Below, piece by piece: positions 45,377-45,610 of a DNA stretch of 64,000 nt. The stretch is from IMG/VR virus record IMGVR_UViG_3300024177_000002; one strand, given 5' to 3'. This stretch comes from an uncultured virus (IMG/VR IMGVR_UViG_3300024177_000002) (taxonomy: Duplodnaviria; Heunggongvirae; Uroviricota; Caudoviricetes). Under the pieces are notes generated by a model. That model was not told where the DNA came from and made no database searches. It worked only from the letters and a program-made list of their open reading frames with translations. Within the stretch, counting starts at the first letter, position 1. Every line of letters begins with the position of its first letter. The translations under genes and the position numbers were made by a program.

Positions 45377-45610
45377 TCATCGTTTCAGTATCTCCCAGTA
45401 ATCCCCGTCATCTAATTGCAAATCAATCTGCTGTAAATCGCCCTCGACAGCCTTGGCAATCCTCGAATTGTGAAAGCTGGCGATGAAATTGCATTTCCAG
45501 GCCAGCCGTTGATACAGCTTTTTGCTGGCGATGCCGACTGCGCTGGCCAGGATGGTGAGGATTGCGAGAACGCACAGGAGCTCGATCAGGGTGAAGGCGC
45601 GGCGGGTCAT
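45377..45610 (-). CDS. prepilin-type N-terminal cleavage/methylation domain miniprotein (77 aa)
   Basis: [23 protein letters not shown]: class III signal peptide with E+5. Confidence 0.82.
   Translation of the reverse strand: [77 protein letters not shown]

Follow-up and report, generated by a model that had tools for sequence, protein, structure and literature searches.

The gene for P0001 raises the question of why a tailed phage would encode a short protein that resembles the stalk of a type IV pilin and carries no head. The phage is uncultured, and the gene lies in a stretch of 64,000 nucleotides, here called the window. The runs containing this DNA are labelled soil metagenome. A preliminary description had proposed a minimal pilin or pseudopilin mimic that jams filament assembly or titrates the prepilin peptidase.

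Gene and start site

The public gene call for this locus is a 151-aa ORF, P0003, that starts at 45832. We think that P0003 is an over-call and that the true start is the ATG at 45610, because in every relative the alignment is confined to the 77 C-terminal residues of P0003 and because ATGA start/stop overlaps, read from the sequence, chain P0001 with three other small ORFs (Table 1). The short form is further suggested because the upstream extension is unconserved: the 74 extra N-terminal residues of P0003 have no real similarity to the extension of P0005, a relative that is itself over-called. On the evidence of its alignments the ORF is more than chance, and P0001 is a real gene because relatives cover residues 3–76 and ATGA overlaps join both neighbours.

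Table 1. Features of the P0001 locus
Feature	Position	Strand	Remarks
Gene for the 77-aa pilin-like protein P0001	45377..45610	-	ATG 45610-45608, TGA 45379-45377
Leader peptide MTRRA, codons 1-5	45596..45610	-	Placement from the PF07963/TIGR02532 match
Alpha-1-N, 23 residues, Phe+1, Glu+5, predicted membrane helix	45527..45595	-	Profile position 1 = mature pilin residue 1
C-terminal 49 residues	45380..45526	-	Helix continues to residue 56, amphipathic and alpha-1-C-like; a loop and a short helix peculiar to the family follow
Upstream 30-codon candidate ORF P0002, one hydrophobic helix	45607..45699	-	TGA overlaps P0001 ATG (ATGA)
Upstream 51-codon Trp-rich candidate ORF	45696..45851	-	Stop overlaps P0002 ATG (ATGA)
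Downstream 64-codon candidate ORF, two CxxC pairs	45186..45380	-	ATG overlaps P0001 stop (ATGA)

Of the neighbouring candidate ORFs, P0002 has no PHROG match and yielded no relatives, the Trp-rich ORF has neither a Pfam nor a PHROG match, and a search with the CxxC ORF returned no relative besides itself. P0002 contains an SRYHW aromatic patch, and in being small and membrane-like it is reminiscent of PfsE, a pilus inhibitor of 30 residues. A 64-codon ORF in the same small-gene operon (43934–44128, minus strand) encodes a membrane helix followed by a CPYC...CNNC zinc-ribbon-like tail and has no match in Pfam, PHROG or PADLOC. Promoters and terminators were scanned for between 42800 and 50200, and the counts were no higher than in shuffles. 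None of the runs listed as containing the DNA is an RNA run. A second run contains 44714–45168 only, which lies outside the P0001 gene.

Class III signal and pilin-like anatomy

A class III signal consists of a hydrophilic leader and then 20–25 mainly hydrophobic residues, often with Glu at +5, and the leader "invariably ends with ... Gly or Ala", as the passage on these signals in PMC10191384 puts it. P0001 has a leader of five residues, two of them Arg, followed by Phe+1, Glu+5 and 23 mostly hydrophobic residues. Its −1 residue is Ala rather than the usual Gly and is thus allowed. The N_methyl profile PF07963 matches residues 3–25 with 30.7 bits (cut-off 21.2, E 2.1e-7), and TIGR02532 gives 32.6 bits (curated cut-off 16.3). 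By both profiles and by each element of the definition, P0001 carries the class III signal and E+5 that the preliminary description had read in the 77-aa ORF; TIGR02532 was the very model that it had named for a check. Cleavage by prepilin peptidase is predicted after Ala5, between 45596 and 45595. A regex scan of the window in all six frames found no second class III motif.

The AlphaFold2 model, built with a seven-sequence alignment (pLDDT 72.4), has a helix over residues 8–56, a low-confidence loop, a short helix over residues 68–76 and no strands. The long helix is about the length of pilin alpha-1. In the 'lollipop' architecture alpha-1 is joined to a globular beta-sheet head; P0001 has the stalk but lacks the head. 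The preliminary description was right in seeing no globular head, as only 49 residues follow the hydrophobic stretch and the model is free of strands, but it overlooked a conserved module in those residues. On this anatomy P0001 is a complete alpha-1 stalk, made up of the class III signal, a predicted membrane helix and a putative amphipathic alpha-1-C, in which a family-specific acidic and aromatic tail of about 20 residues would replace the globular head.

Foldseek comparison of the P0001 model with the PDB gave 0 matches, and the best result of a wide VIA-align search (Z 5.6) was on generic long helices and thus uninformative. The module has no known domain or fold by Pfam, Foldseek or VIA-align. 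The SBP_bac_10 domain (PF07596) is absent from P0001, with no match at E ≤ 1, and P0001 is unmatched in PADLOC.

Could P0001 be a working pilin of minimal size, incorporated in host filaments, that alters their surface or tip without stopping assembly and so masks a phage receptor? The full class III signal and Glu+5 are consistent with such a subunit, and chains of Geopilin domain 1 of only 61–90 residues (9egp, 7tgg, 2m7g) are among the PDB matches of its family. Phage P-FimU proteins, moreover, are described as incorporated and as protecting without loss of pilus function (PMC12952977). P0001, however, has no beta strands and no disulphide pair, no PilA-C-like partner is found nearby, and its leaderless relatives, described below, could not be processed like pilins. 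It also falls far below the cut-offs of all equivalog models for pilins and pseudopilins (PpdD, ComGC/D/E/F, GspG/H/I, PilA), with 24.9 against 138 bits for NF007862, 25 against 70 for ComGD and 18.9 against 80 for GspH. We regard a working minimal pilin as quite improbable.

Relatives of P0001

An exhaustive phmmer search of 1.84 billion representative proteins (E ≤ 0.001) with P0001 gave nine matches: its own over-called ORF P0003, six real relatives (P0004–P0009) and two repeat proteins (654 and 406 aa) whose similarity is spurious. The real relatives align with residues 3–76 at 38–54% identity (E 2.7e-15 to 6.1e-6). A seventh, P0012, was added by cluster look-up. As called, the relatives have 71, 72, 75, 77, 85 and 96 aa, and one is a 156-aa over-call. 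Their clusters are all singletons or pairs, and their contigs range from 561 to 17,509 bases.

The preliminary description had allowed that all homologues might be full-length host pilins, which would make the gene a decayed fragment; every real relative is short. By these alignments P0001 is not a decayed pilin, because all real relatives are short and aligned at full length. A functionless remnant of a captured host pilin gene, or a chance ORF, is scarcely credible as an explanation. The gene is absent from related phages, as a remnant might be, and with 100 N_methyl proteins described in one planctomycete (PMC8567305) capture by a phage is plausible. Against this, seven relatives of similar shortness retain the sequence from end to end, along with a module that pilins do not have, and the gene is coupled to both neighbours by ATGA overlaps. 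The search of the 1.84 billion proteins found no full-length pilin at E ≤ 0.001, which largely refutes the remnant.

The family comprises eight sequences (P0001, P0004–P0009 and P0012) with a core of 71–80 aa. Eight columns are invariant in the alignments (L21, W38, I43, F46, H47, A54, D63 and G69), and all except L21 lie after the membrane helix, in a C-terminal module with the pattern W..(F/Y)I..FHN(S/A)RI..AV..D.QL(D/E)(D/N)G.(Y/F)W.ILKW. For pairs from different clusters, identities are 30–63% in the C-terminal part versus 26–61% in the N-terminal part. The 49 C-terminal residues are thus the best-conserved part of the family, and the protein is more than minimal, the word used in the preliminary description. 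Glu+5 is retained in 7/8 members and an ILA(S/T) motif in most, while the two Cys of P0001 are not conserved. PF07963 scores above its cut-off in 3/8 members (P0001, P0004, P0005), is sub-threshold in two and is absent from three.

The conserved module is the starting point of the main rival to a pilin-related function. P0001 could be a membrane-anchored effector with a non-pilus target, in which the helix serves only as anchor or targeting element and the module (FHNSRI...DG.YW.ILKW) is the active part. It might block DNA injection, modulate a membrane protease or transporter, or affect lysis timing. T4 Imm and Sp are small N-terminally anchored phage proteins and provide parallels of the effector type. 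That 7/8 invariant columns are carried by the module favours an effector, as do the small membrane ORFs nearby (P0002 and the ORF at 43934–44128), which are typical of envelope-directed early genes. The lack of any known domain or fold in the module speaks against it, and further evidence on both sides is given below.

Searches beyond the protein collection extended the family no further. No relative was found in viral contigs, JGI metagenomes or genome contigs searched with P0001, the family alignments or P0007, and a word-index search with P0001 returned nothing. Against 50,697 phage records P0001 gave 19 matches at E ≤ 10. Their coverage of P0001 stayed below 80% throughout, and all involve its N-terminal part only, mostly the first 23–35 residues. 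As judged from these searches, P0001 belongs to a separate and very rare family, represented by eight of about 15 billion sequences. Within the same run, two short contigs resemble the DNA encoding the FTLIELL...ILA motif (45549–45603), with 5–10 differences, before continuing into unrelated sequence; these are likely to be further prepilin-like genes from that community.

Homology of the stalk to pilins

A profile of the eight sequences was compared with the PDB. It gave 22 matches at E ≤ 1, and 21 of them are type IV pilins or pseudopilins, namely pilins of Myxococcus, Thermus, Pseudomonas and Neisseria, the Geobacter geopilin, GspG and PpdD. The best match is 8tj2_C (E 4.8e-4), and position 1 of the profile corresponds to residue 1 of mature pilins. 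When 5.8 billion proteins were searched with the profile, eleven weak matches (E 1e-4 to 8e-3) were found beyond the family. All eleven have PF07963, in a style that ends ..AK...C.NN, and 8/11 of these nearest ordinary N_methyl proteins have Ala at −1.

The likeness is not confined to the membrane helix. hhalign aligned the family profile with nine of these ordinary N_methyl proteins at 98.7% probability over 54 columns, although this score is partly circular because the nine were picked by the family profile itself. The similarity spans the whole alpha-1 helix including alpha-1-C, reaches residue 55–56 of P0001, and does not extend beyond it. In the ESM Atlas, 26/30 nearest clusters are N_methyl families, many of 84–95 aa. 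The stalk of P0001 is homologous to pilins, the head is absent, and the gene is real, conserved and phage-borne.

These results bear on the effector. Even with leaderless members making up most of the profile, its matches are headed by pilins and consist almost entirely of them (21/22), the likeness to prepilin-like proteins continues over alpha-1-C, and Glu+5 lies inside the membrane helix in 7/8 members, which would be hard to explain for a mere anchor.

In 5/9 of the comparison proteins a sub-threshold SBP_bac_10/DUF1559 match follows right after the motif. By sequence comparison the stalk of P0001 most resembles the expanded DUF1559-type prepilin-like proteins. The two are alike in an alpha-1 that is homologous over 54 columns, in a leader that often ends in Ala (8/11 nearest), and, by eye, in the same pattern of basic residues after the membrane helix. 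DUF1559-type prepilin-like proteins are several hundred residues long. Unlike P0001, which ends about 20 residues after its helix, they are cellular and possess an SBP_bac_10 domain. Proteins combining N_methyl and SBP_bac_10 (DUF1559) are described as hugely expanded in Planctomycetes, the 100 N_methyl proteins mentioned above being those of a single species (PMC8567305).

The preliminary description had linked the gene to PVC bacteria. The link holds insofar as the nearest ordinary proteins are of the DUF1559 kind, but their scores are sub-threshold and the ESM Atlas neighbours come from mixed phyla (Campylobacterota, Bacillota, Pseudomonadota). On this DUF1559 likeness a PVC host for the phage is only weakly indicated.

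Leaderless relatives and topology

The family falls into two kinds at the N-terminus. In P0001, P0004 and P0005 a basic leader with Ala as its last residue precedes Phe+1 and Glu+5. In the public gene calls P0006, P0007, P0009 and P0012 start with Met exactly at the +1 column, and P0008 has Met at the +1 column with eight non-basic residues before it. Five Met exactly at +1 are hard to explain other than as true leaderless starts. Glu+5 is kept by 4/5 of the leaderless members. In a tree of the eight sequences a weakly supported branch (72/80) has the three leader-bearing members together on one side.

The charges around the helix differ as well. P0001 has two Lys or Arg before the helix and four after it, and the same is true of an ordinary N_methyl protein, P0018 (MKTKA...). 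In the leaderless members Lys and Arg are lacking ahead of the helix, and 3–5 of them come just after it. Because of this charge pattern and the positive-inside rule, the leaderless members would be expected to sit with the N-terminus out and the C-terminus in, opposite to pilins.

The preliminary description had also offered titration of the prepilin peptidase, with P0001 as a decoy substrate. P0001, P0004 and P0005 have what a decoy substrate might have, a leader ending in Ala, Phe+1, Glu+5 and PF07963 above cut-off. However, 5/8 members start with Met at +1 and offer nothing to cleave, and a cleavable substrate would be turned over rather than titrate the enzyme, as cleavable substrates generally are. 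Since 5/8 members are without a leader, titration cannot be the shared function of the family, and that part of the description is weakened. As an explanation of P0001 a decoy is very improbable.

Leaderless members weigh in favour of the effector, as 5/8 members would go unprocessed and three lack any PF07963 signal, and their charge pattern favours N-out/C-in. Taking these points with those given above, we consider an effector with a non-pilus target quite possible, although we do not lean towards it.

The leaderless starts suggest one further scheme. Phages may have converted a prepilin into a 'pre-matured' pilin mimic that enters or poisons the filament machinery independently of the peptidase, with the C-terminal module as a cap against docking of the next subunit. 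We think this rather unlikely. A literature search, which left about 1.7 million PMC articles outside its range, found no peptidase-independent pilin mimic described.

Phage context and host

The window is phage DNA. It encodes Erf, a YqaJ/RecE-type exonuclease, a DUF3560 protein and an ArdC-like anti-restriction domain, and further genes are primosomal (DUF1376), DnaC-like, Dam, PAPS reductase and a collagen-like tail fibre. P0001 is among small accessory genes that adjoin the recombination and replication modules, an accessory early region that agrees with the early-operon setting given in the preliminary description.

The DUF3560 protein is 71–72% identical to that of two IMG/VR records. 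One of them is G001, whose genome is complete at 56.6 kb and bounded by direct terminal repeats. The window ORF at 4666–6495 is common to G001 (46% identity, E 4e-110), as are 1637–3412, 7327–9573 and 19188–20552. Structural genes common to a complete terminal-repeat genome bear out the earlier view that P0001 is a phage gene. The early region around P0001 is not common to G001 except for DUF3560. The family profile and PF07963 found nothing in 5/5 related virus records, among them three with a completeness of 90% or more; in these records DUF3560 is followed by other small ORFs. Because it is absent from related virus records, P0001 is a variable accessory gene.

Large structural ORFs of 609, 748, 454 and 971 aa lie at 4666–9573 and 19188–25366 (plus strand), and at E ≤ 0.001 neither Pfam nor PHROG matches them. 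A search for cultured relatives, by tblastn of the 609-aa and 454-aa ORFs against the 50,697 phage records, gave no match, and the DUF3560 protein had four weak partial matches only. Because the structural ORFs lack database matches, yet several are common to G001, the phage seems to represent a poorly described lineage.

No pilus or T2SS machinery family was found among 80 window ORFs compared with Pfam (E ≤ 0.001), in agreement with the preliminary description, which had seen no other pilus genes in the window. There are no tRNAs in the window. A holin or lysis role for P0001 was rated low, as no lysis family was found in the window; 82 proteins compared with PHROGs and 80 with Pfam gave no endolysin, holin or spanin family.

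Comparison with known systems

Headless pilins of phages are already in print, untested (PMC12952977), and by the alignments below P0001 is a separate family. The closest parallel is 'P-PilA', described there as truncated PilA-like proteins of 59–65 aa in six virulent Pseudomonas phages of the Nankokuvirus group, KPP10 gp132 among them. Like P0001, P-PilA is phage-encoded and has a class III signal and pilin helix without a head, and the same two hypotheses are discussed for these proteins of about 60 aa. KPP10 gp131–133 also resemble the P0001 locus in being a run of small genes with 4-base overlaps on both sides. The sequences differ. BLASTP of gp132 against P0001 gives 13/21 identities, in residues 3–23 only, and phrog_10597 matches P0001 over residues 4–25 (E 2e-4) versus gp132 at full length (E 2e-44). 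P0001 is further set apart by a longer helix, Ala at −1, a conserved C-terminal module of its own and relatives without a leader. Because only residues 3–23 align, P0001 is not a member of the P-PilA family.

P-FimU of F10-like Pseudomonas phages is likewise a phage-borne type IV pilin-like protein, and is the only tested precedent presented in the account of phage pilins in PMC12952977, where it is used in phage–phage competition. Unlike P0001, P-FimU is a full-size minor pilin that is incorporated while the pilus stays working (PMC12952977). P0001 has no head, and its score with the GspH/FimU-type model is the 18.9 bits given above, far from the cut-off of 80.

The cellular Geobacter PilA-N, or Geopilin domain 1 (9egp, 7tgg, 2m7g), is like P0001 in having about 60–90 residues that are mostly alpha-1 and is among the best matches of the family profile (E about 1e-3), but the match covers only 24–28 N-terminal residues. 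PilA-N works with a separate PilA-C protein. PfsE of the Pf filamentous phages is a functional analogue of the role proposed for P0001, being a tiny inner-membrane protein that brings about superinfection exclusion by blocking pilus assembly (PMC8764522). Unlike P0001 it has 30 residues and binds PilC through a YAWGW motif, and the description of PfsE in that report does not mention pilin likeness.

What is new in P0001 is a very rare separate family, a conserved tail in place of a head, and relatives without a signal peptide.

Proposed function

The explanation that we favour, tentatively, is that P0001 mimics the stalk of a pilin and, from the inner membrane, engages the machinery of type IV filaments. 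P0001 would insert in the host inner membrane as prepilins do, and the host prepilin peptidase may cut it after Ala5. The pilin-like helix, with Glu+5 and the ILAS motif, would then dock into a pilus, a T2SS pseudopilus or related machinery. Once docked, P0001 would be a subunit unable to build a normal filament, and the filament could be blocked, capped or altered. A plausible gain is that rival phages dependent on pili, or the phage's own progeny, are kept out of the infected cell.

Several results argue for a stalk mimic. PF07963 and TIGR02532 score above their cut-offs, the family profile finds pilins (21/22 in the PDB), hhalign covers the whole of alpha-1, Glu+5 is retained in 7/8 members, the predicted helix has the length of alpha-1, and 26/30 ESM Atlas clusters are N_methyl families. 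The phage context is consistent with this role, and absence from 5/5 related records fits a variable accessory gene. Precedents point the same way. Prophage FimU-like minor pilins are reported to block phages that bind the pilus tip (PMC12952977), and the 30-residue PfsE blocks pili through PilC (PMC8764522). A headless stalk could still engage the machinery, because, according to PMC4877100, competence requires no more of gonococcal pilin than its first 38 residues.

Other results sit less easily with a stalk mimic. No pilus or T2SS gene is present among the 80 window ORFs, and the C-terminal module is better conserved than the pilin-like helix. In addition, 5/8 members are leaderless with charges that favour N-out/C-in, the reverse of pilins, just 3/8 members pass the PF07963 cut-off while three give no match, and the hhalign score is partly circular, the set having been chosen by the profile.

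Pili and pseudopili commonly serve as phage receptors and as devices for secretion, and competition between phages is shaped by phage proteins that disable or mask them; such proteins can also be used as anti-pilus tools. If the host is a planctomycete or verrucomicrobium, P0001 would be a small natural probe for the assembly system of the expanded prepilin-like families.

Other genes in the window

A three-gene cassette resembling a defence system lies at 32465–36078 (minus strand). Its SMC-type ATPase matches LmuB (PADLOC, E 3.5e-34), the middle component matches MComp1 below the Pfam cut-off (23.8 vs 27.3 bits), and the third is a SIR2_2-domain protein. The cassette looks like a Lamassu/ABC-3C system with a SIR2 effector. 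Beside it, a 144-aa ORF (31652–32086) encodes only the N-terminal catalytic domain of a serine recombinase.

Two ORFs resembling family-25 glycosyltransferases and several methyltransferases (FkbM-type, Methyltransf_24 and Methyltransf_25) are found amid the structural genes, at 12041–14883 (minus strand) and 28243–29136 (plus strand). This cluster could have a part in modification of the virion or of the host's surface.

HNH endonuclease genes are dispersed along the genome at three places, 9617–10297 (plus strand), 18126–18797 (minus strand) and 37084–37869 (minus strand). Two of the three are paralogues that match the same PHROGs (including phrog_1872, phrog_826, phrog_3593 and phrog_59), and both paralogues match one HNH gene of a related record, G002.
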